Shown here piece by piece: positions 3,452 through 41,345 of a stretch of DNA of 64,000 nt; the first letter of the stretch is position 1; each line of letters opens with the position of its first letter. The stretch is from the NCBI GenBank assembly GCA_964537665.1, contig CAZIBP010000001.1, positions 11,972-75,971 of the forward strand. The letters run 5' to 3'. Below the pieces are notes generated by a model. The model had not been told where the DNA came from. It searched no databases and saw only the letters and a list, made by a program, of their open reading frames with translations. The position numbers and the translations under genes are program-made. The stretch comes from an uncultured Pseudomonadales bacterium. GTDB taxonomy: Bacteria; Patescibacteriota; Microgenomatia; UBA1400; PJMF01.

Positions 3452-4450
3452 TTAAAATAAATGTTTATCTAAATATTTAGGTCGTTGGCCCACTCCAGAG
3501 GGAATAATTTTTTTGACATAAGACATTTCTTTCAAAACTTGCGCCACTGCAATTTCATATTTGGGCAAAGTTAAAACGTGGACGTTAAAACCAGTATTAA
3601 TGGTAAAATAAACTGGTATACCAGATTTTCTTAATTTTCTAACTGTTTGCATAACCGCAATTGTTCCTGGATAAAGTAATAAAATACTTGGTTGACTAGT
3701 CAATAAAATGCTGTGAAATTCCAAAGCTTCTGCCTCAACCAATTCTCCCAAAGTCTTAAAGTCATTTTGGTAAATAGCTTGTTTAACAGCAAATAACTTA
3801 TTTGCAATTTTGGCTTGACGTGCCAAGAAAAATGGGCTCGTTGCTGCCAATTCATGACCAGTGGTAGAACTCATGTCTTTTTTATCTTCTGAAACGATTG
3901 CCACTAAATCGCGAATTTCAAAATCTTGAGGATCAGCAAAACTCTGGGCATAAGATTGCTCAGAAGTGTCGGCATCCAACCACTCAACAAAACCGCCACA
4001 AACACAGCGACAAGCAGTTCCAGATCCTTTTCTGGCTAGAATTGAAAGTTCTTTTTCTGACAAGTCCAAACCAATGGCCTTACTAGCAGCTAGAGTTAGA
4101 GCAGCAAAACCAGATCCAGAGCTAGAAAGACCAGTACTCTTGGGAAAATTATTCTCCGAAACCACTTTGGCAAAAATAGTCTGACTCACAAGTCCTTTTT
4201 CTTTGGCCAAAGTTCTAATACGATTTAAGTGCTCCACCACGCGTGAAACCTCATCTTCTTCAATTTCACCATTAATTATTAATTCATCTTGAGTTAGATT
4301 TGCTAAAAACTCCACCGTGGTGATGGTATTTAGAGAATTCAAAATCATTGAAATACTACCATTAGCTGGCAAACGCAAAGTGTTATCCTTTTTGCCCCAA
4401 TATTTCACCAAAGCAATATCACTCCCCGCCTGCACCGTAATTTTTTGCAT
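3452..4450 (-). CDS. mvaD: Diphosphomevalonate decarboxylase (GHMP family)
   Basis: N-terminus ...DIALVKYWGKKD..., GLSSSGSGFAALTLAASKA GHMP motif, and ...TACRCVCGGFVEW..., all typical of MVD. Last gene of the mevalonate operon. Confidence 0.8.
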   Translation of the reverse strand: MQKITVQAGSDIALVKYWGKKDNTLRLPANGSISMILNSLNTITTVEFLANLTQDELIINGEIEEDEVSRVVEHLNRIRTLAKEKGLVSQTIFAKVVSENNFPKSTGLSSSGSGFAALTLAASKAIGLDLSEKELSILARKGSGTACRCVCGGFVEWLDADTSEQSYAQSFADPQDFEIRDLVAIVSEDKKDMSSTTGHELAATSPFFLARQAKIANKLFAVKQAIYQNDFKTLGELVEAEALEFHSILLTSQPSILLLYPGTIAVMQTVRKLRKSGIPVYFTINTGFNVHVLTLPKYEIAVAQVLKEMSYVKKIIPSGVGQRPKYLDKHLF

Positions 4451-4454
4451 AAAA

Positions 4455-5447
4455 TTATTTTTCCACTCTCACTCCGGGAGCATTCATTGTTACTTCAATA
4501 ATTTTACCACCGGCTTTTGTAATAGCTGCTGCGACCTTCAGTCTGTCATTGTGTCCCGTCAAAGCCAACATACAATCTCCACCACCAGCTCCCGAAAGCT
4601 TGGCCCCCATTGCTCCAGCAGCTTTACTAGCAACAATTAAATTCTCTAATTCAATGCTACTAACTCGCAACTGACGCAACAAGTTTTGGTTTTGATCCAT
4701 TAATGAACCCAAATGCGTCCAATCTTGAGATTTAAGGCTTCGTTTGGCCTGTTGGACAAGCAAGGTAATTTTTGTAAAAATATCCGTAGTAAAGTCTTGA
4801 TGTTGATTAGCTAAGTTTTGCACCATTCTAACTAAGGTGGCTGTATCAGCTTTTATACCTGTATAGCCAACTAAAAATGGCAAACTTTCCAATTCAATTT
4901 GTTCAATTAATTTATGATTTTTGGTATTTGCATTCAAAGGAGTAAAATAAATCGTTCCTCCCCAAATTGCCGCAGCAATGTCAAAACCAGAAGCCACTCC
5001 TTGCACCTCTAAAACCGTTTTATAGCAGAGCTGAAAGAGCTGATCATTAGTCATTGGCACTTCATAAAATTCACTCAGAGCCTTAGCAAAAGCGACTGTG
5101 CTGGCACTACTAGAACCCAAGCCGTAAGAAGATTTGAATTCGTTTTGACTACAAACGTGAATAGTTTTTTTCTGAGGATATTTTTCCAAAAAAAACTTAT
5201 AACAATTTTCAATAAAACTTACTTCTTTTGGCAAATCCTGATTACCAAGATCTTTAATATTTTTTGAGTAAGCTCGTAAACCAAGATCGGGAGCATCAAG
5301 AACAAAAAGTTCCTCCCCATTTTCTTCAATGGTAATTGATAAGCGACGATCAACAGCCGTTACGATGCAAGGATGACCAAAAACCACACTATGTTCACCA
5401 AAAAGCATAAGTTTGCCTGGTGCTGAAGTTCTAATTACTTTTTTCAT
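4455..5447 (-). CDS. GHMP kinase, mevalonate-kinase-like (mevalonate or phosphomevalonate kinase candidate)
   Basis: N-terminal SAPGKLMLFGEHSVVFG, GLGSSSAS ATP-binding motif, GVASGFD motif. 4-bp overlap with the upstream paralog. Confidence 0.65.
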   Translation of the reverse strand: MKKVIRTSAPGKLMLFGEHSVVFGHPCIVTAVDRRLSITIEENGEELFVLDAPDLGLRAYSKNIKDLGNQDLPKEVSFIENCYKFFLEKYPQKKTIHVCSQNEFKSSYGLGSSSASTVAFAKALSEFYEVPMTNDQLFQLCYKTVLEVQGVASGFDIAAAIWGGTIYFTPLNANTKNHKLIEQIELESLPFLVGYTGIKADTATLVRMVQNLANQHQDFTTDIFTKITLLVQQAKRSLKSQDWTHLGSLMDQNQNLLRQLRVSSIELENLIVASKAAGAMGAKLSGAGGGDCMLALTGHNDRLKVAAAITKAGGKIIEVTMNAPGVRVEK

Positions 5448-6307
5448 ATAATTCCCAATTTAGTTCTTAAAAAAGGCCAACCCCAATTTTGCAATTCTTT
5501 TTCAAAAGTTGGCGCGTCTTCATGAAAAGCTAAAATATAACCAGAACCAGTTGCTACTCCACCAGCTCCAGTAATTTTGCAAAAAGCACCCAGTTGTTGC
5601 AATTTCCTAATAATTTGCCTGGCAACATTTCCCACCACGCCAAGTTCCTCCAAAAAAAGTTGATTCTCATTTAATAAACCAGGATCAAAATGACCATTTT
5701 CTAAATCAATTAACATTTTTTGACTCAAATCGCCAATTTGGTGCAAAATTTTTTGATTTCTTACCTGACTAGCAACTTTTGCCACCATTTCTCCGGTTGA
5801 TTCTTTAGCTGCACCAGAATCGATTAGGAAAAAAACTCGTTTATTAAGCGCAGCTGTGGAGATTCTTGTGAATATGCCCCTTCTGAAGGCAATAAGTCCC
5901 TCATAAACTACAATGCTCGGATCAGCTCCGCTAGATTTACCATGAATAAAATTTTCTGCCTCTAGAACTAGCTTATAAAGTTGGTCCAAATTAAGTGGAT
6001 GATTACAAAAATGAGCTAATTCTTTCAAAACTGCTGCAGCAAAAGCTGCTGAAGAACCTAAGCCTGATTTTTCTTGCAAAGAAGATTCAACTTTTAGACC
6101 AAAAGAAGGCACTTTTTGATCAATTGCTTTGGCAAAAAGAGCAATGAGATGCTGTAGATATAAATCTTGTTGTTGATGATGATTCAAAACACCAACCCTG
6201 ATAGTTGCTTTAACGCCCAAATTTAAACTAGCCAAAATAGCAGTTTGCCCAGCAACAACACTGTGTTCACCAGTTAAAATAACTTTACCAGGTGCAAAAC
6301 TAGACAT
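5444..6307 (-). CDS. Mevalonate kinase (GHMP family)
   Basis: FAPGKVILTGEHSVVAG, GLGSSAAFAAA, and the HGKSSGADPS motif of mevalonate kinases. Confidence 0.7.
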   Translation of the reverse strand: MSSFAPGKVILTGEHSVVAGQTAILASLNLGVKATIRVGVLNHHQQQDLYLQHLIALFAKAIDQKVPSFGLKVESSLQEKSGLGSSAAFAAAVLKELAHFCNHPLNLDQLYKLVLEAENFIHGKSSGADPSIVVYEGLIAFRRGIFTRISTAALNKRVFFLIDSGAAKESTGEMVAKVASQVRNQKILHQIGDLSQKMLIDLENGHFDPGLLNENQLFLEELGVVGNVARQIIRKLQQLGAFCKITGAGGVATGSGYILAFHEDAPTFEKELQNWGWPFLRTKLGII

Positions 6308-6617
6308 GACTCGCCTTCAAGCCGTAGCAGATAACTTCCTGCTGGGCTTCTTTCTTAATTTTGCGCAACACTATTTCCACCTCATCACCAACCATAAATT
6401 CTTGATGAGCGGCTCCCATTAAGGAAATTCTCTCTTTATCTAGTTCTATCAATAAATAAGCATAAGGCAACAATTCCACCTGATCAGTCGCCGCCACTTC
6501 CATCATTGAAACAGCTAGTACTTTGCCTCTTTTACCCAAATATTTTGCCCAATTTTGATTAGATCGCCAATATTCTGTAATTTGCATAAAATCTTTCCAT
6601 CTAAACAAATAAATCAA
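6300..6617 (-). CDS. DUF35-type OB-fold protein, scaffold partner of archaeal thiolase/HMG-CoA synthase
   Basis: 105-aa ORF immediately downstream of the thiolase and HMG-CoA synthase genes. Size and operon position match the archaeal DUF35 component; identity from sequence alone is weak. Confidence 0.55.
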   Translation of the reverse strand: MIYLFRWKDFMQITEYWRSNQNWAKYLGKRGKVLAVSMMEVAATDQVELLPYAYLLIELDKERISLMGAAHQEFMVGDEVEIVLRKIKKEAQQEVICYGLKASHV

Positions 6618-6785
6618 AACTTAGTCCTTTAACAGGAGACCATTTACAGGAGCTGATTAATAAACATAAATAAACAATTATGTTTATAGACAGCGACTGC
6701 AATGAGTGCAGAAGAAGATTGTCAACTTAAACAAGCTAATAATTTTCGTCTAACGTGTCTCATGTTAAAGGACTAAGTTTTGATT
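6612..6785. repeat. 23-bp perfect inverted repeat (aatcaaaacttagtcctttaaca, 6612..6634, and its exact reverse complement, 6763..6785) flanking a 128-bp spacer
   Basis: Read directly. The arms overlap the stop of the thiolase gene and the start of the DUF35 gene. Confidence 0.75.
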
Positions 6786-7888
6786 CCTAATATATTAACC
6801 ACCGCAGTTGCCCCACTTCCACCAACATTGTGCGCGAGTGCTCGCTCAAATTGTCCAGATTCAATTAGGGCAGATAAGAAAGCAATCTGCTTGACACCGG
6901 TAGCTCCAACTGGATGCCCACAAGCTTTTAATCCACCAGATGGATTGATGACTACTTGACCTCCATAACTTGCCTGATGATTAGCAATTGCTGCTGCGGC
7001 TTGACCTTTAGCAAAAAAGCCCAAATCTTCTGCTGCCAAAATTTCTGCAATACTAAAACAATCATGGACCTCAATTGCTTGAATATCTTTTTGACTCAAA
7101 GCAGCCATTTTAAAAGCTTGTTTGGCTGCTTTGGTGGTTGCCGCCAATTGACCTAAATCCTGGCGATCTTGTAATGCTAGGGTGTCCTGACCATGTCCAA
7201 AACCGAGAATTTGCGTTTTGCGTGAAGATTTTTTGCTACTTAAAATCACTGCTGCCACACCATCACTAATTGGGGAGCAATCTAAAAGTCTAAGCGGTGA
7301 AGCCACCAAAGGAGAATTAGAAACTTCTTCCAAAGTGAATTTTTTGTGGAATTGAGCTTTGGGATTACTAAAAGCGTGTAAGTGATTTTTCACAACTACA
7401 CTCGATAATTGTTCGCGACTGGTGCCATAGCGATTCATGTGATAATTAGCCAAGATCGCATAAAGAGCTGGAAAAGTTGAACCATACTCTTTCTCTCGAC
7501 TAGCTGCAGTAGCCAAAATTGCACTAGTCTGACTACCTGCTACATCAGTCATTTTTTCCACCCCCAAAACCAAAACAGTCTGATATAGACCGCTAAGTAG
7601 AGCTTGCTGAGCTGCAATCACTGCCAAACCACCCGAAGCACAAGCTCCCTCAACACGCATTGCAGGAGGAAAATGTTCAAACTGCTCACTAACCAAAGCA
7701 CCTAAATGTCTTTGTTCATTAAAACTACCACCAGCTTTATTAGCGACAAAAATTGCATCAATTTCTTGAGATTTGATTGCTGAATCAGTCAAAACACCAG
7801 AGACTCCCTCCTGAACTAAATCGGTTAAACTTTTTGCCCAAAGTTCTCCAAACTGGCTAATGTAGCTACCAATTACTTTAATGTTCAT
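6773..7888 (-). CDS. Thiolase (acetyl-CoA C-acetyltransferase), archaeal-type short form
   Basis: 371 aa with the active-site region VEGACASGGLAVIAA and a C-terminal GHPVGATG motif typical of the thiolase fold. Overlaps the HMG-CoA synthase gene by 11 nt. Confidence 0.75.
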   Translation of the reverse strand: MNIKVIGSYISQFGELWAKSLTDLVQEGVSGVLTDSAIKSQEIDAIFVANKAGGSFNEQRHLGALVSEQFEHFPPAMRVEGACASGGLAVIAAQQALLSGLYQTVLVLGVEKMTDVAGSQTSAILATAASREKEYGSTFPALYAILANYHMNRYGTSREQLSSVVVKNHLHAFSNPKAQFHKKFTLEEVSNSPLVASPLRLLDCSPISDGVAAVILSSKKSSRKTQILGFGHGQDTLALQDRQDLGQLAATTKAAKQAFKMAALSQKDIQAIEVHDCFSIAEILAAEDLGFFAKGQAAAAIANHQASYGGQVVINPSGGLKACGHPVGATGVKQIAFLSALIESGQFERALAHNVGGSGATAVVNILGIKT

Positions 7889-8963
7889 TCTGATTCCTCA
7901 TCTTTTGATATTCTGCTAAATTAACGTTTTTTAATCCAGCAATCTGCTCAGCAATTAACTTAGTGTATTTTTTTCTCTGCTTGGTCAAGTGCGTAGTAGT
8001 CTCAAAAAGGAAAGCATCAGCTCCAGATCCAGAACCATATGAACAGACCAATATTTTGGCCTTTTCTGGAGCAGTGTCCAAAACAGCGCAAAGAGCCAAT
8101 AGTGAAGCTGCCGCATAAGTATTGCCAATTTCTTTAACAATTAATGAAGGAGCTAATTGTTTAGCGCTAAAACCCAATTGTTGAGCAACTTGTTGTGGAA
8201 ATTTAGCATTAGGAGTGTGAAAAACACAAAAATCTATATCTTGAGTCTGTAAATTGACTTCATTCATTAAGGCTCGAGTTGCCATACTAACATGTTTGAA
8301 ATAAGCTGGTTCACCAGTAAATCTACCAAAATGTTGTGGGTAGGATTCCTTCGGCTTTCGCCAAAAATCTGGAGTGTCTGTGGCAACTGATTTGGTTGCC
8401 AATAATCTAGCTATTAACTGATCACCATTAATATCACTACCAATGATGAAGGCGGCGGCGCCCGCCGCCGCCGTATACTCTAATGCATCTCCTGGACGAG
8501 CCTGAGCAGTATCTGCTCCGATTGCTAGTGTGTTTTTTGCCATCTGGGCTTGCACATAAGCAGCAGCAATTTGTAAAGATTGCGAGCCAGCTTTACAAGC
8601 AAATTGTAAATCCGCCATACTCAAAAAATTATTTAAACCCAATGCTTCTTTAACAACACTGCCTGATGGTTTAACAGCATAAGGATGGCTTTCACTCCCA
8701 ATAAAAAGAGCGCTAATGTTTTCAGCCAAACCATGATTATCTAAGAATCTATTAAGGGCAATTTTGCCAGCATCAGTAGCCAAAGTGATTGTATCTTCAT
8801 CTAAACTAGGGATGGTTTTTGCATAAACACCAAGTGATTTGACTAAATCACCACTCTTGGCTTGGCTCTGAGCAATGATGCTTGTGGCAACTTTTTGCTT
8901 TGGAATGGCTGCTCCGTAAGCAATAATCCCTACCTGATTTTTTTTATTTTCTAGATTTTGCAT
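7878..8963 (-). CDS. Hydroxymethylglutaryl-CoA synthase, archaeal-type short form
   Basis: 361 aa with a condensing-enzyme fold (GSESHPY..., FACKAGSQSL, HTPNAKFP resembling the archaeal HQPNxKF motif). Sits in an operon with thiolase and DUF35. Confidence 0.7.
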   Translation of the reverse strand: MQNLENKKNQVGIIAYGAAIPKQKVATSIIAQSQAKSGDLVKSLGVYAKTIPSLDEDTITLATDAGKIALNRFLDNHGLAENISALFIGSESHPYAVKPSGSVVKEALGLNNFLSMADLQFACKAGSQSLQIAAAYVQAQMAKNTLAIGADTAQARPGDALEYTAAAGAAAFIIGSDINGDQLIARLLATKSVATDTPDFWRKPKESYPQHFGRFTGEPAYFKHVSMATRALMNEVNLQTQDIDFCVFHTPNAKFPQQVAQQLGFSAKQLAPSLIVKEIGNTYAAASLLALCAVLDTAPEKAKILVCSYGSGSGADAFLFETTTHLTKQRKKYTKLIAEQIAGLKNVNLAEYQKMRNQNEH

Positions 8964-8968
8964 TTGAT

Positions 8969-10195
8969 TTACCTCGCTAAATGAGCATGAGCTGCTGCCA
9001 AACTATGATTACTAAGTGCTGCCAAACCAGAAATTTCAGCTGCCAACACTCCCACCGCCAAGATTGCTGCTAACTGGGTAGGACTTAGCGTTTTTTTTGT
9101 TTGGTGGATTAAATTGCGCAGCTCAAATTGGCTAGGTAAACTAGTACCACCACCCACACTCCCAAGTGGCAAATCAGGTAAATTAACAGCTAAATAAAGG
9201 TTTTTCTCACCGGAAGCCGCCAATTCTTCCTCCACAATGGTGCTGCCCTGGCTAGCTTCTGTGACGTGAGCCAAATCTTGACCTGTGGCCAAATAAAAAG
9301 CTGCCGCTACATTGGCAAATTGCATATTATTAGCAAAAGAGCCGGCCAAATTTGAACCAATTAAATTCTTGCTCACATGAGTTTTGAATAAGGTTTGAGA
9401 TTCTGTTTTAAGAGTTTGTTGTAAAACCACTTCATCTAAGAACACTTCTGCCTGAGCTGTATAAGCTCTGCCAAGCAATTGATTGATAAATGAAGCTTTT
9501 TTGTCTGTGCAGACATTACTAGAAATAGCTAACATTTCTATATTTGGATATTTGATCAGAAACTCCTCCCACAGTTTTTGCAAAGCAATTGTAACCATAT
9601 TCATCCCCATAGCTTCACCGCTAAAAAAGCTAAAACGCACATAAACCTGACGACCTCTGACAAAACTTTGTAAACAAAGAAATTGCAAATGAGAGCTGGT
9701 TTTCTCCGTAATCATTTTAATTTGCGAGAGTATTGCTTCTTTTTCAAGATAATCAGCAAAAGCAAAAGCTTGCTCGCCATTTTTAAAGGCAAAAACAGGT
9801 GCTCTGGTAATGCCAAAATTTTTGACAATAACATTTGCTCCGCCAGCTTGATTAATTGCTTTTAGACCCCTATTAACACTGGCTACTAAAGCCCCTTCAC
9901 TGGTGGCTAATGGAACAAAGTATTCTTCAGTTTGACCATGATTAATCCTCAATTTGACCGGACCAGCCAAACCCACTGGCACCGAAACTGCACCGATCAT
10001 ATTTTCACAGTTGTGTTGATTGGCTCGACTCAATTCTGGACTCACTGAAAAAAGATGTTGGCAATCTAGCTTGCGCCATTTTTTTTGCACCTCAGCTTGT
10101 CTTGCCGCAATGGCTTGCAAATCGCTTTGAGTTGATTTTTTTGCTTGAAAGAATGACATTACATATCTAATAGTCGCAAAAAAGAACAAAATCAC
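8969..10195 (-). CDS. HMG-CoA reductase (class I-like catalytic domain)
   Basis: ENMIGAVSVPVGLAGPVKLRINHGQTEEYFVPLATSEGALVASVNRG is a near-canonical HMGR signature. The true start may be an internal Met (MSFFQAKK). Confidence 0.85.
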   Translation of the reverse strand: MILFFFATIRYVMSFFQAKKSTQSDLQAIAARQAEVQKKWRKLDCQHLFSVSPELSRANQHNCENMIGAVSVPVGLAGPVKLRINHGQTEEYFVPLATSEGALVASVNRGLKAINQAGGANVIVKNFGITRAPVFAFKNGEQAFAFADYLEKEAILSQIKMITEKTSSHLQFLCLQSFVRGRQVYVRFSFFSGEAMGMNMVTIALQKLWEEFLIKYPNIEMLAISSNVCTDKKASFINQLLGRAYTAQAEVFLDEVVLQQTLKTESQTLFKTHVSKNLIGSNLAGSFANNMQFANVAAAFYLATGQDLAHVTEASQGSTIVEEELAASGEKNLYLAVNLPDLPLGSVGGGTSLPSQFELRNLIHQTKKTLSPTQLAAILAVGVLAAEISGLAALSNHSLAAAHAHLAR

Positions 10196-10233: not shown

Positions 10234-11298
10234 ATGCTTAAAGAAATTCAGGAAGTTAAAAAAATTATTGACCCCTTTTTACTAGATTTTTTACAAGTAG
10301 AAGAAAAAAAGTTCCAAGATCAAGCCTTAAGTCAAGAGGCCTTCACCAAAATCAGAGAATTTGTTGTCTCTGGCAAAACTGTGCGCGGCGGCTTGTTTTT
10401 ATTGGCTGCCGAGAGCTTCAATCAAAACAAATATCAAAAATATAAAACAGATTTACTATGGCTAGCCGCCGCACTTGAATTGATTCATTCTGCTTTATTG
10501 ATTCACGACGACATAATTGACCAAGATCAAAAAAGGCGAGGTTTGGACTCAATTTGGCACCAATACGAAAAAATTGCTTTGAAAGAACAATATAGCAACC
10601 CAACTAATTTTGGCAAAAGCTTGGCAATTTGTCTTGGCAGCGTTGGTCTGTATTTGGCTAACCTTGCTATAGAAAAAGTTTCGCTTTTACCACATTTGAC
10701 ACAACAACAAATTAGACAACTCATTAACCAAGAGATTATCAAAACTTACTTTGCAGAAATGCTTGATTCTAAAATTACATCACAAAATGAAGTGCCTTCT
10801 CTGGATGAAGTTTTGGAAATGTATTTATTCAAGACTGCACGTTACACTTTCGTTTTACCTCTCCAATTAGCTGGTTTGGCTATTGGAACTGATGCGTCAC
10901 AAATAGAACAACTAATCAAAGTTGGCGAAAAACTTGGTTTAATCTTCCAAATCAAAGATGATCAAATTGGAATTTTTAGCCCTGAAGAGGTATCTGGAAA
11001 AAGCCAAGCTTCAGATATTAGAGAGGGTAAAAAAACTATTTTTTATCTCAATCTAATCAAACAAGCCAATTCTAAAGATAAAAAAATTATTCAAGATAAA
11101 TACGGTCAAAAGCAATTAAGCAAACAAGAAATAGAGCAAATTCAAGGATTTTTTGACCAATATGCAATGAAAGAAACTAATAGTTACTTAAATCAATTGG
11201 TTGAAGAAACCAAAATTTTAATTAAAACAGTTAAGGGTAAAAAAACTACTGATTTACTTGAGAAAATACTATTTTTCAATCTCGATAGAAAATTCTAG
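10234..11298 (+). CDS. Polyprenyl (isoprenyl) diphosphate synthase (GGPP/FPP synthase family)
   Basis: First aspartate-rich motif LLIHDDIIDQD and second motif FQIKDDQIG. Divergent from the mevalonate operon. Confidence 0.8.
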   Translation: MLKEIQEVKKIIDPFLLDFLQVEEKKFQDQALSQEAFTKIREFVVSGKTVRGGLFLLAAESFNQNKYQKYKTDLLWLAAALELIHSALLIHDDIIDQDQKRRGLDSIWHQYEKIALKEQYSNPTNFGKSLAICLGSVGLYLANLAIEKVSLLPHLTQQQIRQLINQEIIKTYFAEMLDSKITSQNEVPSLDEVLEMYLFKTARYTFVLPLQLAGLAIGTDASQIEQLIKVGEKLGLIFQIKDDQIGIFSPEEVSGKSQASDIREGKKTIFYLNLIKQANSKDKKIIQDKYGQKQLSKQEIEQIQGFFDQYAMKETNSYLNQLVEETKILIKTVKGKKTTDLLEKILFFNLDRKF

Positions 11299-23030: not shown

Positions 23031-23393
23031 ATGCAAATCATCAAGCAAGCTTACGCACAAACTCAAGAGTGGACAAGTATTAGTCCTGGCTGCGTTAATG
23101 CTGAAGTCGCCACTATACAAGGTTTTGGTTGTCTTTTAGCCAATGTTTTATCGGTGGCGCTAACCCTACTTGGAATTGTGGGTTTTGTGATGATTATTTA
23201 TGCCGCCTTTAACATGATGGTGATGGGTGGCAACAGCCAAGCTACTGAAAAATCAAAAAACACCATCACCTTTGCCGTAATTGGCATTATCCTCGCTCTT
23301 TCTTCTTTCATCATTATCAATCTAATTGCAGATTTCACCGGCGTAAGTACCATTAAAGACTTTTCTATTCCGGGATCAGGTAAAAATTGGTAA
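23031..23393 (+). CDS. TrbC/VirB2-like pilin paralog 7 (more divergent)
   Basis: Core MMVMGGNSQATEKSKNTITFAVIGIILALSSFIIIN. Own promoter-like aggttataat upstream. Confidence 0.5.
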   Translation: MQIIKQAYAQTQEWTSISPGCVNAEVATIQGFGCLLANVLSVALTLLGIVGFVMIIYAAFNMMVMGGNSQATEKSKNTITFAVIGIILALSSFIIINLIADFTGVSTIKDFSIPGSGKNW

Positions 23394-23402
23394 GATAAAA
23401 AA

Positions 23403-24080
23403 TTATTTACCAAACCTTCTCTGTCTACTTGCATAATCTTCCAAAGCTTTATTAAATTCAGCTTCATCAAAATCAGGCATCAAAACATCGGTGAAATATA
23501 ATTCAGAGTAAACTGACTGCCAAGTGAGAAAACCAGATAGGCGCTTTTCTCCACCCGGTCTAATCAATAAGTCTGGATCTGGCAGATCAACCAACTTCTT
23601 AGTATCTAAGAATTTTTCAAAGTTAGCTCCACCCTGCCTAACAGCCCGAATCAATTCATCTCGCCCACCATAATTTAGGGCAAAAGTAACAGTTAATTCT
23701 TGATTTTTCTCTGTTTCATTGAGCCAAAAATTCACCCCATCTTGGATGTCTTTTGGGAAACGACTTAAATTACCAATGATTGCCACCCTGACACCTTTTT
23801 TGTGAAGTCTCTCTGCGCTAGTAGCGAAAGTTTCTCTAAAAAGATCCATAATTCCAGAGACTTCTTCTTCTGGTCTTTGCCAATTTTCCGTACTAAAAGC
23901 CCACAAGGTTAAATATTTTATACCCTTTAAAATACAGAAGTCTGCCAAGCGCTCAATCATTTCTTCTGCCACTTTGCGATGACCCTTAATAATTGCTAAA
24001 CCATTTCGTCTGGCCCAACGACGATTACCATCCATGATGATGGCAACATGTGTTGGAATTGTGTTCTGAGTTTTTGCCAT
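23403..24080 (-). CDS. uppS: Undecaprenyl diphosphate synthase (isoprenyl transferase)
   Basis: HVAIIMDGNRRWARRNGL and ...ERLHKKGVRVAIIGN... are canonical for cis-prenyltransferase. 225 aa. Confidence 0.9.
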   Translation of the reverse strand: MAKTQNTIPTHVAIIMDGNRRWARRNGLAIIKGHRKVAEEMIERLADFCILKGIKYLTLWAFSTENWQRPEEEVSGIMDLFRETFATSAERLHKKGVRVAIIGNLSRFPKDIQDGVNFWLNETEKNQELTVTFALNYGGRDELIRAVRQGGANFEKFLDTKKLVDLPDPDLLIRPGGEKRLSGFLTWQSVYSELYFTDVLMPDFDEAEFNKALEDYASRQRRFGK

Positions 24081-24089
24081 TTTTTACCA

Positions 24090-24662
24090 TTAATTTAATA
24101 ATAATTGGTCAATTTTCTTGACAATCTCCACGTTGTCTAGAAACAAATTAAACCATGTAGTAAGCTTACGTTCTCCCACTTTTTTGTCCTTAACCATCAT
24201 CCAATCTAGCCAAACAAAATTTAAAACCTCTTGTGGATTGGGGGTTATTTTTAATTGTAAAAATTGCTTTTCGTCTAAAACAGTCACAAATAGATGATCA
24301 ATCTCATTTTCTGAGAAACCATCACCGCAAGCTACTTGATAATCAAAAACCATAATCTTATCTAATGACCAGTTATCTAACCAGTTAATTCCCAATTCTT
24401 CAAAGAGACGTCTTTTCAGACAAGATTGATGATTTTCACCTGGAACAAGGTTGGCACATAAGGTATTAGCCCATTGTAAACTGCCCACAATTTTTTCACG
24501 ACTTCGTTGTTGTAATAAAATTTCAAAAGCACCGTCACTTTTTTGGTGAAACAAAAATAAAGACACAGCCTGGTGTTTTTGGCCATTGCCGCGATGAGCA
24601 GTTAGAAGATCAGTTTGGCCAATTATCTCGTCTTGATCATTAACTAAGTTTACTTGTCGCAT
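24090..24662 (-). CDS. idi: Isopentenyl-diphosphate delta-isomerase, type 1 (Nudix-like)
   Basis: HQAVSLFLF, LLQQRSREKIVGSLQWANTLC, RRLFEELGI match IDI-1 signature blocks (HRAFSVFLFN / QRS..K..PG.W.N.C / RRL.EELGI). Confidence 0.7.
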   Translation of the reverse strand: MRQVNLVNDQDEIIGQTDLLTAHRGNGQKHQAVSLFLFHQKSDGAFEILLQQRSREKIVGSLQWANTLCANLVPGENHQSCLKRRLFEELGINWLDNWSLDKIMVFDYQVACGDGFSENEIDHLFVTVLDEKQFLQLKITPNPQEVLNFVWLDWMMVKDKKVGERKLTTWFNLFLDNVEIVKKIDQLLLN

Positions 24663-24736: not shown

Positions 24737-26980
24737 ATGTTAAATTCACAATATCAAGCTAAAGACCACGAAGACCAAATTTATAAATTGTGGTTAACTC
24801 ATGATTGCTTTAATCCAGACAGCGAAATCAATCAGAATCTAAGACAACAAACACAAAACAATCGAGAAAAATTTTCAATCATTATGCCACCACCAAATGC
24901 AAATGATCCTCTGCATGTGGGACATGCTATGTTCGTGACTCTTGAGGATATCATGATTCGTTTTGCCCGCATGCAAGGCAAGGATACAGTTTGGATTCCA
25001 GGCACTGATCATGCCGGCATTGAAACTCAATTTGTATTTGAAAAAAAACTCAAAAAAGCTGGTCAAAGTCGTTTTAATTTTGATCGCGAAAGCCTTTTTC
25101 AAATGATTTGGGATTATGTTAATGAAAATTCTGCTATTGCTGTCGCACAAATTAAAAAACTTGGAGCAAGTGCTGACTGGAGTCGCTACAAGTTTACCCT
25201 CGATCAAGATATTGTTAAATCAGTGATTGAAACTTTTGTCCAAATGAACAAAGACAACTTGGTTTATCGCGCCAATCGTCTAGTCAATTTTTGTCCCAAA
25301 TGTGGCACCGCCTTTAGCAATCTTGAGGTGGATCATCAAGAACAAGAGACTGCTCTTTATTATATTAAATATGGCCCCTTTGTTTTGGCAACCACCAGAC
25401 CAGAAACAAAATTTGGTGACACTGGCTTGGCAGTTCATCCCACAGACAAACGCTATCAACAATATATTGGTCAGGAAGTTGAGGTTGAAGGCTTAAATGG
25501 TAAATTTAAACTCAAGGTTATTGCCGATGAATTTGTTGATAAAGAGTTTGGCACTGGAGTAGTAAAAATTACTCCTTATCACGATTTTAATGACTTTGCA
25601 GCTTGGCAAAGACATAAAGATGAATTACCAGAGCCAATTCAAGTAATTGACTTTGAAGGTCGTTTGACAGCCGTTGCTGGCAAATATGCTCATTTAAAAG
25701 TTGCTATTGCTAGAGAACAAATCGTTAAAGACTTAGCCCAAAAAGGTTTGTTAGTTAAAGTAGAAAAAAATTATCACAATAATCTTAGTGTCTGTTATCG
25801 TTGTAACAACCCAATCGAACCTCTACCTCTTCCTCAGTTTTACATTAAAGTTAAAACTCTTACTCAGACAGTCTTAGAAAAACTAGATAAAAAAGAAATC
25901 AAAATTCATGGAGCTGGTCACGACAAAATTCTACGTCATTGGCTTGAAACTCTGGAAGATTGGAATATTAGCCGTCAAATCGTTTGGGGAATTCGCCTGC
26001 CAGTTTGGTATAAAATTAGTGAAAATGAAGATGCTCAAATTACCTTCATCAATCAAGATAAAGAGCGTATTTCTGGAGAACTAATAACCCTATTAAAACA
26101 ATTCTCAATTGCAGAAATTAGAAAAGGTTTACAAAATATTAATCCTCGTATTACTGCCCCATATCTAGTCAGTCAAGAAAATCCTGGTGAAGAATATCTA
26201 CAAGAAACCGACACTTTTGACACTTGGTTTTCTTCCAGCCAATGGCCAGTAGTAACTCTGATGAACAACCAATCAGGTGACTTTGAAAGATTCTACCCCA
26301 CTAGCACTATGGAAACTTCTTATGATATCTTGATGTTTTGGGTAATGAGAATGCTGATGATGGGCATCTATAAAACTGGACAAACTCCTTTTAAAAATGT
26401 TTATCTACATGGACTCATTAGAGACGCTAAAGGCCAGAAGATGAGTAAGAGTAAGGGCAACGTAGTCAATCCAATGGAAATCAGTGAAAAATACGGCACA
26501 GACGCCCTCAGAATGGCTCTTGTCATCCGCTCCTCAGCTGGTTTAGACAAATCAGTTAGTGAAGGTGATTTCAAAGCCATGCGCAATTTTAGTAACAAAC
26601 TGTGGAATGCTAGTCGCTTTATTCTGATGAGCAAAACAGCAAAGGAAAATAAAACAAGTTCAAGTTGCTCTGGCGATGAGGATTTTACAAAAAAGCTACA
26701 AACAATTACTAAGGATGTGAGCAAAAACTTAACATCACTAAAACTGGGAATTGCAGCCGACACTCTTTATAATGAATTTTGGCACTGGTTCTGTGATCAA
26801 TGTATAGAAGAATCAAAAAAAGGATTGATAAATCAAGATTTAATGTTTGATGGTTTACTCACATTTTTAAAACTACTCCACCCCTTCATCCCATTTGTCA
26901 CCGAAAGTATTTGGCAGGAGTTGGTGAAGCAAAATTTAGTCAAGGAAAAAGTTTTGATTAGTAGTACTTGGCCAAATTAA
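24737..26980 (+). CDS. valS: Valyl-tRNA synthetase (short form lacking the long C-terminal coiled-coil)
   Basis: PPPNANDPLHVGHAM (HIGH), WIPGTDHAGIETQ, KMSKSKGNVV (KMSKS). 747 aa. Confidence 0.8.
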   Translation: MLNSQYQAKDHEDQIYKLWLTHDCFNPDSEINQNLRQQTQNNREKFSIIMPPPNANDPLHVGHAMFVTLEDIMIRFARMQGKDTVWIPGTDHAGIETQFVFEKKLKKAGQSRFNFDRESLFQMIWDYVNENSAIAVAQIKKLGASADWSRYKFTLDQDIVKSVIETFVQMNKDNLVYRANRLVNFCPKCGTAFSNLEVDHQEQETALYYIKYGPFVLATTRPETKFGDTGLAVHPTDKRYQQYIGQEVEVEGLNGKFKLKVIADEFVDKEFGTGVVKITPYHDFNDFAAWQRHKDELPEPIQVIDFEGRLTAVAGKYAHLKVAIAREQIVKDLAQKGLLVKVEKNYHNNLSVCYRCNNPIEPLPLPQFYIKVKTLTQTVLEKLDKKEIKIHGAGHDKILRHWLETLEDWNISRQIVWGIRLPVWYKISENEDAQITFINQDKERISGELITLLKQFSIAEIRKGLQNINPRITAPYLVSQENPGEEYLQETDTFDTWFSSSQWPVVTLMNNQSGDFERFYPTSTMETSYDILMFWVMRMLMMGIYKTGQTPFKNVYLHGLIRDAKGQKMSKSKGNVVNPMEISEKYGTDALRMALVIRSSAGLDKSVSEGDFKAMRNFSNKLWNASRFILMSKTAKENKTSSSCSGDEDFTKKLQTITKDVSKNLTSLKLGIAADTLYNEFWHWFCDQCIEESKKGLINQDLMFDGLLTFLKLLHPFIPFVTESIWQELVKQNLVKEKVLISSTWPN

Positions 26981-27438
26981 GTTATAATTTTTCTGTGCTA
27001 ACTAACTTATTTTTTTATTTAAGACTAGCAGGCTTATGTTTACGATTAATCTCTAATTTAGTAGTCTTTACCCTACTCTTTGTTTTTGCCAAATTAAATC
27101 AGCAAAAACTTCTAAATATTATTTTAATTTTATTTATTATCTTGGTTTGGCTAAGTAATATTTTTCTATTCAGACAGAAAAATACCGCGCAAATTATTGT
27201 TGAAAAAGCTTACCTTGAGGAAATGAGTCAACAAAATAATTTTAAGACACAACAATTCTTACTAAATAAAACAGAACTAAATGAAAAAATATTAAATCAA
27301 GAAAAATTAGTTAATCAAGGAATTAAAAACCTTCAACTTTTTCTCAACTTGGCAAATCTACATTCAATTTCAAAAAATCAAGCATCAGTAAAAAAATATC
27401 TGGAGCAAGCTATTTTGATTAATCCTGAAATCAGGTAA
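26968..27438 (+). CDS. Hypothetical membrane protein
   Basis: 156 aa, 2-3 TM segments, then a Gln/Asn/Lys-rich helical region. Confidence 0.3.
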   Translation: MAKLSYNFSVLTNLFFYLRLAGLCLRLISNLVVFTLLFVFAKLNQQKLLNIILILFIILVWLSNIFLFRQKNTAQIIVEKAYLEEMSQQNNFKTQQFLLNKTELNEKILNQEKLVNQGIKNLQLFLNLANLHSISKNQASVKKYLEQAILINPEIR

Positions 27439-40475: not shown

Positions 40476-41345
40476 CTAGTTTACTAAATTTTGAGGCTTG
40501 ATTACAAGGGGACCTAGTATTTCACCCTTTAATTCTATTTGCGAGCTTGGATATTTGTATTCATTTTTTTCTACCAAGACAAAATAAATTCCATTACTGA
40601 GAGGTTTATTGACCTGAAAATTACCAGCTTCATCGCTTTTCATTATTCTCAAGCTCTGACCTTTCTGATCCTTAATTTCCACAATGGCGTTGACAACAGC
40701 TATGCCGTGTTGATCTAAAACCAAGCCAAAAACTTGATTGGGCAGATGATCGCCATTAGTGATAAAAGTTTGAGGGGTGTTTAATTTTCTAACTCTGGTT
40801 TGTAAACTGGGTTTTTCTTGTTTTTTTAATTCAATTTCAACATCTGTTGACCTGACCTGAACCTTGTCATATTCGCCTAAAATATTACTAATTTTTTGAT
40901 TTTCTTGCAGGTCAAATTGATCAACTCTCTCATCAGAGGGGATGCTTTTTAGATATTCAAAAATTCTTTGTTTGCGTGCGGGGTTTAAATTAACATCTGG
41001 AGCAAAAAAATCACTTTGTGTGCTGCTAATCTTATAATTAAAAAGATCAGGAATTTTGTTGGCTTTTTTCCAGAAAAACTTAGTTGGTTTATAGATGTTT
41101 TTAAAGAAAGTCTTAATCCAATGATCAAGCGGTCTTTCTTCAATTGGCACAAAAGCCACCATTGCCCCAAAACCAACAGTAATAAAAACTAAAGGCCATT
41201 TGATAATTCCGATTAAGTTGGTCTTAAAAATTGCGAAAGCAATTACCACTGCCACAGCAATCTCGGCAAATTGTTTGAGAGTCATGCTACCTATAAGGTG
41301 AAACTTATAGTTGGTGATGTCTTGAGGAATAGGATGTTGTTTCAT
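40476..41345 (-). CDS. PrgI/VirB3-like two-TM membrane protein fused to a C-terminal carboxypeptidase-regulatory-like (Ig-like) domain
   Basis: The N-terminal ~90 aa has two TMs (FAEIAVAVVIAFAIF / WPLVFITVGFGAMVAFVPI) and sits immediately before the VirB4-like gene, as PrgI does. The C-terminus GLVLDQHGIAVVNAIVEIKDQKGQSLRIMKSDEAGNFQ resembles the CarboxypepD_reg fold. Confidence 0.45.
   Translation of the reverse strand: MKQHPIPQDITNYKFHLIGSMTLKQFAEIAVAVVIAFAIFKTNLIGIIKWPLVFITVGFGAMVAFVPIEERPLDHWIKTFFKNIYKPTKFFWKKANKIPDLFNYKISSTQSDFFAPDVNLNPARKQRIFEYLKSIPSDERVDQFDLQENQKISNILGEYDKVQVRSTDVEIELKKQEKPSLQTRVRKLNTPQTFITNGDHLPNQVFGLVLDQHGIAVVNAIVEIKDQKGQSLRIMKSDEAGNFQVNKPLSNGIYFVLVEKNEYKYPSSQIELKGEILGPLVIKPQNLVN

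Follow-up and report, generated by a model that had tools for sequence, protein, structure and literature searches.

Mevalonate pathway genes have been described in the candidate phyla radiation (CPR) of bacteria before. The main text of the 2018 survey by Hoshino and Gaucher (PMC6107057) lists MVK, PMVK and DPMD in CPR genomes, links them to prenyl synthase genes, and reports isopentenyl phosphate kinase (IPK) in some lineages. Three further systems lie close to the locus studied here: the archaeal complex of thiolase, HMG-CoA synthase (HMGCS, HMGS) and a DUF35 protein (2018, cited in PMC6996347); the proteobacterial and spirochaete operons, of which the mvaA-idi-hcs-mvk-pmk-mvd operon of Paracoccus zeaxanthinifaciens is functional and replaced the methylerythritol phosphate (MEP) pathway in Rhodobacter (PMC7264872); and the route of Chloroflexi and haloarchaea through mevalonate kinase (MVK), phosphomevalonate decarboxylase (PMD) and IPK (PMC3857490). 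We analyzed a seven-gene operon within a stretch of 64,000 nucleotides of contig CAZIBP010000001.1 (the window), from a Pacebacteria-like CPR member, and found that it probably encodes a complete classical mevalonate pathway, that is, one running through diphosphomevalonate.

The operon consists of seven minus-strand open reading frames (ORFs) for HMG-CoA reductase (HMGR), HMGS, thiolase, a DUF35 protein, two GHMP kinases (A and B) and a decarboxylase. All operon genes were mapped onto 80 related loci from species-representative genomes, and the order HMGR-HMGS-thiolase-DUF35-kinase A-kinase B-decarboxylase was found again in about 20 CPR loci. The nearest of these (L001-L007) were from Pacebacteria-like metagenome-assembled genomes (Pacebacteria, Patescibacteria), in which the operon order was kept and the proteins were 54-87% identical to those of the window. 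Together with composition and the genes resembling T4SS pilins and PrgI, these relatives mark the source as a Pacebacteria-like CPR bacterium. The operon is a further member of the CPR gene set described in 2018, and its arrangement is the published CPR norm as far as the survey's main text presents it. It resembles the survey's CPR clusters (Microgenomates/Pacebacteria) in host group and in the linkage to a prenyl diphosphate synthase, and it differs from them in its neighbors: a trans-prenyl synthase gene is adjacent to it, whereas idi and uppS are 13 kb away. Four details, namely a DUF35 protein without zinc, a decarboxylase clade with Asn at position 283, a Gly/Asp discriminator in kinase motif 3 and the mutual exclusivity of kinase B and IPK, were not found in the available portions of the literature examined; the survey's main text is silent on the DUF35 gene and the loss of its zinc ribbon, on the decarboxylase Asn, and on the exclusivity of a PMK-lineage kinase and IPK. 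These are minor variants and do not make a new system.

The two GHMP kinases are kinase A (287 aa, 5444..6307, minus strand), whose best PDB matches were MVKs, and kinase B (330 aa, 4455..5447, minus strand). The most likely assignment is that kinase A is the MVK and kinase B a phosphomevalonate kinase (PMK) with MVK-like motifs, on the basis of co-occurrence, tree, motif 3, similarity to PMKs and synteny. Among the related loci, kinase A was always found after the thiolase-DUF35 genes. Kinase B was added in 23 of these loci, none of which (0/23) had an IPK, while four CPR operons (L016, 4548-7270; L026, 3-2792; L033, 8187-10778; L044, 9986-12727) combined kinase A and a decarboxylase with a bona fide IPK (NF040647, 187-189 bits, cut-off 120) and had no kinase B. 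Since all mevalonate routes that use a decarboxylase of this family need an MVK, the constant kinase A would be that enzyme, and since kinase B alternates with IPK, kinase B would be the enzyme of the second phosphorylation. Kinase A was the sole kinase in six more loci (L022, L023, L024, L028, L036, L049; around position 10000 of each), in which the operon stops after HMGR-HMGS-thiolase-DUF35-MVK and is followed by uppS or by genes for a trans-prenyl synthase, Fic, RhuM, DNA ligase, PAP2 or pilins. No other downstream route was recognized among the neighbors of these loci, which is uninformative, and the later steps of the pathway must be encoded elsewhere or absent. If the roles were exchanged, with kinase B as the MVK and the divergent kinase A as a novel MVK-derived PMK, both the IPK-type operons and those limited to the early half of the pathway would be left without an MVK. 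The sole GHMP kinase of L044, a member of the kinase A clade, scored 180.5 bits against the MVK equivalog model TIGR00549, above its cut-off of 163.05.

The kinase tree and the motifs pointed in the same direction. A split placing kinase A with canonical MVKs, including that of M. mazei, and kinase B with canonical PMKs of the GEY type was recovered in 175 of 200 bootstraps, while the alternative pairings, with kinase B among the MVKs, appeared in 6 of 200. One residue of motif 3 followed this split: Asp was present in 60 of 61 sequences of kinase B and PMKs, Gly in all 81 sequences of kinase A and MVKs. The motif reads GAGGGD in kinase B, with D291 invariant in its family, and GSGGGD in Listeria Lin0012 (3K17). 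Kinase A evolves fast and carries an insertion of 4-5 residues in the glycine loop of the same motif (GAGGVATGSG). The canonical GEY-type PMKs matched kinase B at E values of 1e-19 to 1e-21, compared to 2e-6 or no match for kinase A, and in profile comparison (hhalign) scored 302-321 with the kinase B family against 231-265 with the kinase A family. Finally, kinase A followed by kinase B and then the decarboxylase is the mvk-pmk-mvd order. Kinases of both these MVK-like lineages also stand in this order, ahead of a decarboxylase, in proteobacterial, spirochaete and other operons, where neither kinase reached a curated MVK or PMK cut-off. By analogy with Rhodobacteraceae loci of our set (L063, L066, L080), the Paracoccus kinases would belong to these A and B lineages. 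The two operon types differ in their early genes, since the proteobacterial and spirochaete operons have a bacterial-type HMGS and no dedicated thiolase or DUF35 gene, and also in their decarboxylases, which unlike that of the window have Arg193, Met196 and Asp283.

Several observations weigh against this assignment, some of them in favor of exchanged roles. Kinase B passed the TIGR00549 cut-off with 200 bits, while kinase A fell just short of it (147.6 bits). Kinase B stayed below every curated PMK cut-off (TIGR01220, 128 bits with a cut-off of 165.7; TIGR01219, 28 with 377; NF040957 Arch_PMK, 104 with 500), and kinase A reached none of them either. The PMK-type motif G-K-L-x-x-x-G-E-Y, whose GEY is present in Lin0012 and in the canonical PMKs of L069 and L075, is replaced in kinase B by a GEH ending (GKLMLFGEH). 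The best PDB matches of kinase B by sequence and by fold were archaeal MVKs (E values of 1e-36 and 3e-25), and kinase B was also what the archaeal MVKs of L039 and L071 matched best by BLAST. Canonical MVK profiles were about equally distant from the two families by hhalign. The tree is a distance (neighbor-joining) tree of 289 columns with few canonical references, and the inspection covered the window and 10 kb on either side of each related locus, so that an IPK or another PMK may lie elsewhere in the genome. When the kinase B model was compared by fold, MVKs and one PMK-like protein scored similarly. Weighed against the kinase-A-only and IPK-type operons, the L044 kinase, the bootstraps, the shared motif-3 Asp, the closer PMK similarity and the gene order, an exchange of roles appears unlikely.

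The reading of kinase A as MVK and kinase B as PMK bears directly on the preliminary description of this DNA. That description had noted MVK-type N-termini in both kinases, and both do carry APGK...GEH and resemble MVKs in the curated hidden Markov models (HMMs). It had also seen no ERG8-type PMK, and neither kinase passed an ERG8-type or Gram-positive-type PMK cut-off. Its suggestion that the PMK was absent was not supported, given that the 287-aa and 330-aa kinases separate into MVK and PMK lineages by tree, motif 3, synteny and co-occurrence. Of the two solutions it had offered, an MVK paralog with PMK activity is favored by the evidence, and the need for a variant route found no support. 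Kinase B may belong to a branch of the PMK lineage that evolves slowly and resembles MVK, which would fit the published idea that PMK originated by duplication of MVK (PMC9254496; PMC6107057). Both kinase families are large, and annotation pipelines call both "mevalonate kinase". The MVK active-site residues Lys, His, Ser and Asp, whose roles have been described (PMC6283576), were considered as a discriminator and dropped, as both kinases carry all four. In the kinase A family the invariant positions are K8, E14/H15, GLGSSAA and D129, corresponding to the GHMP motifs with the catalytic Lys, His and Asp.

The last gene of the operon (3452..4450, minus strand) encodes a mevalonate 5-diphosphate decarboxylase-like enzyme, which scored 251.8 bits against TIGR01240 (cut-off 171.35) and 188 bits against the PMD model NF040704, far below its cut-off of 475. 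Its residues were compared in the signature columns of 60 homologs using the S. epidermidis numbering. Dellas et al. (PMC3857490, Table 4) tabulated the phosphate-binding positions, with Tyr18, Lys21, Ser139, Ser141 and Ser192 as beta-phosphate ligands. The window enzyme has Tyr18, Lys21, Arg27, Ser139, Thr141, Arg144, Ser192, Thr193 and His196, so that the beta-phosphate set is complete with one conservative change, Thr for Ser at position 141. Position 21 was Lys or Arg in every CPR decarboxylase linked to kinase B, Gln in two of the four linked to IPK, and Asn in the Anaerolinea PMD. The Lys21 of the window enzyme, which is the state of the mevalonate diphosphate decarboxylases (MDDs), favors a diphosphate substrate without proving it. 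The four IPK-type CPR operons, two of them with Gln at this position, probably run the phosphomevalonate decarboxylase route.

Other features of this enzyme were less favorable to a diphosphate substrate. Its best PDB match was the Anaerolinea thermophila PMD 6N0X (260 bits), a characterized phosphomevalonate decarboxylase (PMC9254496), ahead of the best MDD, from E. faecalis (200 bits), and it has His196 and Arg27 in common with the Anaerolinea enzyme. The engineered variant 6N0Z differs in sequence from 6N0X by Asn to Lys at KYWG(N/K) and by His to Met in the S-T-x-G-(H/M) loop, and the residues changed are evidently, from this sequence difference, those of specificity. These features suit a variant route in which the decarboxylase is a PMD acting on mevalonate 5-phosphate and kinase B is an IPK of the GHMP fold, standing in for the usual IPK of the amino-acid-kinase fold. 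Such a route, if true, would account for the mutual exclusion of kinase B and IPK, although that pattern is equally compatible with a replacement and with a switch of routes, and CPR bacteria would then run an "archaeal-order" route with a non-homologous IPK replacement. A 2024 study notes the present placement of the CPR beside Chloroflexota (PMC11052028), which fits the affinity of the decarboxylase to the Chloroflexi enzyme. However, the beta-phosphate ligand Lys21, missing in PMDs, is kept in all decarboxylases linked to kinase B; the window enzyme thus has a lysine where a PMD would have a non-basic residue. His196 and Arg27 occur throughout the CPR, including the IPK-linked enzymes, and so look like lineage traits. 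The enzymes of the kinase B type in proteobacteria and spirochaetes pair with canonical MDDs (Lys21, Arg193, Met196, Asp283), and the Paracoccus operon, comparable here by its gene order and not by its kinases, runs the classical pathway. The scores against TIGR01240 and the PMD model also argue for an MDD, and we consider the variant route quite improbable.

An IPK partner was not found in the window, as the preliminary description had also stated, when mid-sized ORFs were searched with Pfam and an archaeal probe and CPR probes were run with phmmer and tblastn; the best tblastn hit of three CPR IPK probes had an E value of 0.7. The window differs from the Chloroflexi and haloarchaeal route in three points: it has no IPK, its second GHMP kinase belongs to the PMK lineage, and its decarboxylase retains Lys21, while the minority of CPR operons that have an IPK beside the decarboxylase (L016, L026, L033, L044) resemble that route.

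A separate difficulty concerns catalysis. In the literature, Asp283 counts as a conserved residue of every DMD, PMD and MBD (PMC9254496), yet this position is Asn in the window enzyme and in about 20 orthologs. The equivalent change abolishes the activity of the P. torridus MBD (D309N), and changes of the Asp to Thr or Val convert a DMD into a 3-kinase (PMC9254496). The enzyme might on these grounds be a 3-kinase or inactive, in which case the operon alone would yield no isopentenyl diphosphate (IPP). On the other hand, the D281N mutant of the S. solfataricus DMD stays active as a decarboxylase (PMC9254496). The Asn was retained in orthologs down to 48% identity, in operons that were otherwise intact and syntenic, which argues that the decarboxylase works, and the remaining ATP- and substrate-binding positions were all kept. 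An altered or lost last step therefore seems very improbable.

A small ORF lies between the thiolase and kinase A genes. The preliminary description had proposed a DUF35-like OB-fold protein of 105 aa; the family was upheld and the length was not. Within the ORF range 6300-6617, the likeliest start is the ATG at 6587, because an identical database protein (P0241, 95 aa) and all orthologs agree on it, giving a protein of 95 aa with an N-terminal helix and an OB fold (6300..6587, minus strand). The ORF alone was below threshold for PF01796 (E=6e-4) and matched the "Pfam DUF35" chain of PDB entries 6ESQ/6ET9 (6ESQ_E) marginally (E=0.007). A profile of 26 members, built with orthologs gathered from 25 related operons, matched 6ESQ_E, the DUF35 protein of M. 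thermolithotrophicus, with E=8e-17, the match spanning the N-terminal helix and a C-terminal I-x-Y-G-x-K strand, both conserved. Individually, 18 of the 26 orthologs reached PF01796. An AlphaFold (AF2) model of the ORF had a mean predicted confidence (pLDDT) of 75.8, and its top Foldseek matches were the DUF35 chains of 6ESQ, the archaeal thiolase/HMGCS complex, followed by the DUF35 subunits of benzoylsuccinyl-CoA thiolase and the ChsH2 aldolase (7PXP/7PYT, 6OK1).

The protein differs from described DUF35 proteins in one respect. The rubredoxin-like zinc ribbon with four cysteines is missing, leaving the OB domain and a single Cys. Alignment with the ortholog of L046, the only one with four cysteines and PF12172 (zf-ChsH2), placed a deletion of about 31 residues in the window protein, and the ribbon was deleted in 25 of the 26 CPR orthologs. 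The small ORF is thus a homolog of the DUF35 scaffold with its zinc ribbon cleanly deleted. Because every structurally characterized DUF35 protein binds zinc (PMC6996347), it represents a structural variant of the scaffold. The archaeal complex and the window share the same three families in adjacent genes, and both profile and model matched the scaffold chain best; the archaeal scaffold retains its zinc ribbon, whereas the window protein lacks the roughly 31 ribbon residues.

We also observed that the DUF35 stop overlaps the start of kinase A by 8 nt at 6300-6307 (ATGTCTAG). Two protein clusters (P0072, P0073) are fusions in which the OB domain of DUF35 precedes a kinase A homolog. Together, the fusions and the overlap hint at a possible physical link between MVK and the thiolase/HMGS/DUF35 assembly.

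The two enzymes expected to work with this scaffold were of the archaeal type. The HMGS (7878..8963, minus strand), of the short form, passed both archaeal equivalog cut-offs (NF003274, 404 bits with a cut-off of 244; TIGR00748 HMG_CoA_syn_Arc, 361 with 353) and scored only 113 bits against the bacterial model TIGR01835. The acetoacetyl-CoA thiolase (6773..7888, minus strand), SCP-x-like and matching PF22691 and PF00108, was borderline for NF004720 (419.1 bits, cut-off 420) and scored 374 bits against NF053570, AcCoTHIOL_METTL of the M. thermolithotrophicus type. Its translation shows the catalytic Cys (GACASGG) and the HDCF and GHP motifs, thiolase motifs that have been named before (PMC12960953). 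The archaeal thiolase/HMGS/DUF35 trio of the preliminary description was therefore borne out by family models, profile and adjacency. The first gene encodes a class I (NADPH type) HMGR consisting of the soluble catalytic domain (8969..10195, minus strand; PF00368, 321 bits), which scored 316 bits against TIGR00533, below the cut-off of 442. Its longest ORF begins with GTG at 10195, with an alternative ATG start 12 codons downstream (MSFFQ...), and its orthologs occupied the equivalent operon position in L002-L013. A scan for promoters and terminators along the operon gave no signal above chance.

Three genes for the use of IPP were present in the window outside the operon, in line with the preliminary description. 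A trans-polyprenyl diphosphate synthase (10234..11298, plus strand; PF00348, 160 bits) is divergent from the operon, a position kept in L002, L003, L006 and L007. A cis-prenyltransferase (undecaprenyl diphosphate synthase), uppS (23403..24080, minus strand), was identified by PF01255 (238 bits) and TIGR00055 (233 bits, cut-off 110), and uppS lay immediately 3' of the decarboxylase gene in many related operons. A type 1 IPP isomerase of the Nudix fold, idi (24090..24662, minus strand; PF00293), had NCBIfam matches limited to type 1 isomerases, each below cut-off (NF002995, 100 bits with 127; TIGR02150, 73 with 106), and its homologs were found immediately upstream of HMGR in L008-L013.

In the proposed pathway, acetyl-CoA would be converted to HMG-CoA by the archaeal-type thiolase and HMGS, which the DUF35 protein without its zinc ribbon probably links as in the archaeal channeling complex, and HMG-CoA to mevalonate by the class I HMGR. 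Judged by lineage and co-occurrence, kinase A would add the first phosphate as mevalonate kinase and kinase B the second as a phosphomevalonate kinase of MVK-like lineage. The decarboxylase would then convert mevalonate diphosphate to IPP despite the Asn at its catalytic Asp position, and the type 1 isomerase, the trans-prenyl synthase and UppS would lead from IPP to polyprenyl carriers.

The thiolase and DUF35 genes are separated by a spacer of 185 nt, which contains a palindromic element of 154 nt (6622..6775), with perfect 13-bp terminal inverted repeats, TA on both flanks, and a predicted RNA folding energy of -60.1 kcal/mol (z=-7.3). The end of the element provides the stop codon of the thiolase, whose C-terminus is unaltered compared to relatives. 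The element is single-copy in the window and absent from the closest relatives, which have thiolase-DUF35 spacers of 0-60 nt. A second copy of 90% identity with sharp boundaries was observed in a metagenome contig (L081, 948-1101), right after a gene resembling nrdR, in surroundings that are otherwise unrelated. From these features it is probably a small mobile element resembling miniature inverted-repeat transposable elements (MITEs), landing at gene ends. It lies inside the operon and is no part of the pathway. The spacer had been considered as a hiding place for a degraded zinc ribbon, which was rejected as the spacer is a palindromic insertion.

Other features of the window were recorded as well. 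Genes resembling type IV secretion pilins and PrgI were found at 23031-23393, 40476-41345 and 54706-56306; a pilin-like conjugal transfer protein of the Mbov_0395 family adjoins uppS, and the same pilin genes lie beside mevalonate genes in L036. A valyl-tRNA synthetase ORF (24737-27438, 747 aa) matches positions 2-696 of an 860-position model and is overlapped at its end by a 156-aa ORF, possibly indicating a split gene or one that lacks its C-terminal part. Beyond the decarboxylase, a tRNA-Ile with anticodon TAT (UAU) was predicted by ARAGORN at 2919-2995 and confirmed as a tRNA by Rfam. Most bacteria read AUA through a lysidine-modified CAU tRNA, and a UAU tRNA-Ile would be uncommon. A predicted surface protein of 388 aa (1705-2871) is anchored to the membrane by its N-terminus and contains four cysteine-rich modules (C-G-x-x-x-C-x-x-x-x-D-C-x-x-G-x-x-C) together with a series of PTDEPTVT repeats.

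The 2018 survey of mevalonate genes in CPR already covers the finding as stated, which opens no new question. Four of its details are worth a specialist's attention. The DUF35 scaffold is without the zinc ribbon found in every solved DUF35 protein. A whole decarboxylase clade has Asn at a supposedly universal Asp. Across CPR, Proteobacteria and Spirochaetes, both kinases are wrongly named mevalonate kinase by curated HMMs, and one motif-3 residue (Gly/Asp) separates the two lineages. The PMK-lineage kinase and IPK appear as alternative equipment within one radiation, documenting a switching between the diphosphate and monophosphate orders of decarboxylation. For the organism, a CPR bacterium of reduced genome, the operon would mean that it can itself make the IPP needed for undecaprenyl-type lipid carriers, which bears on the autonomy of such episymbionts.

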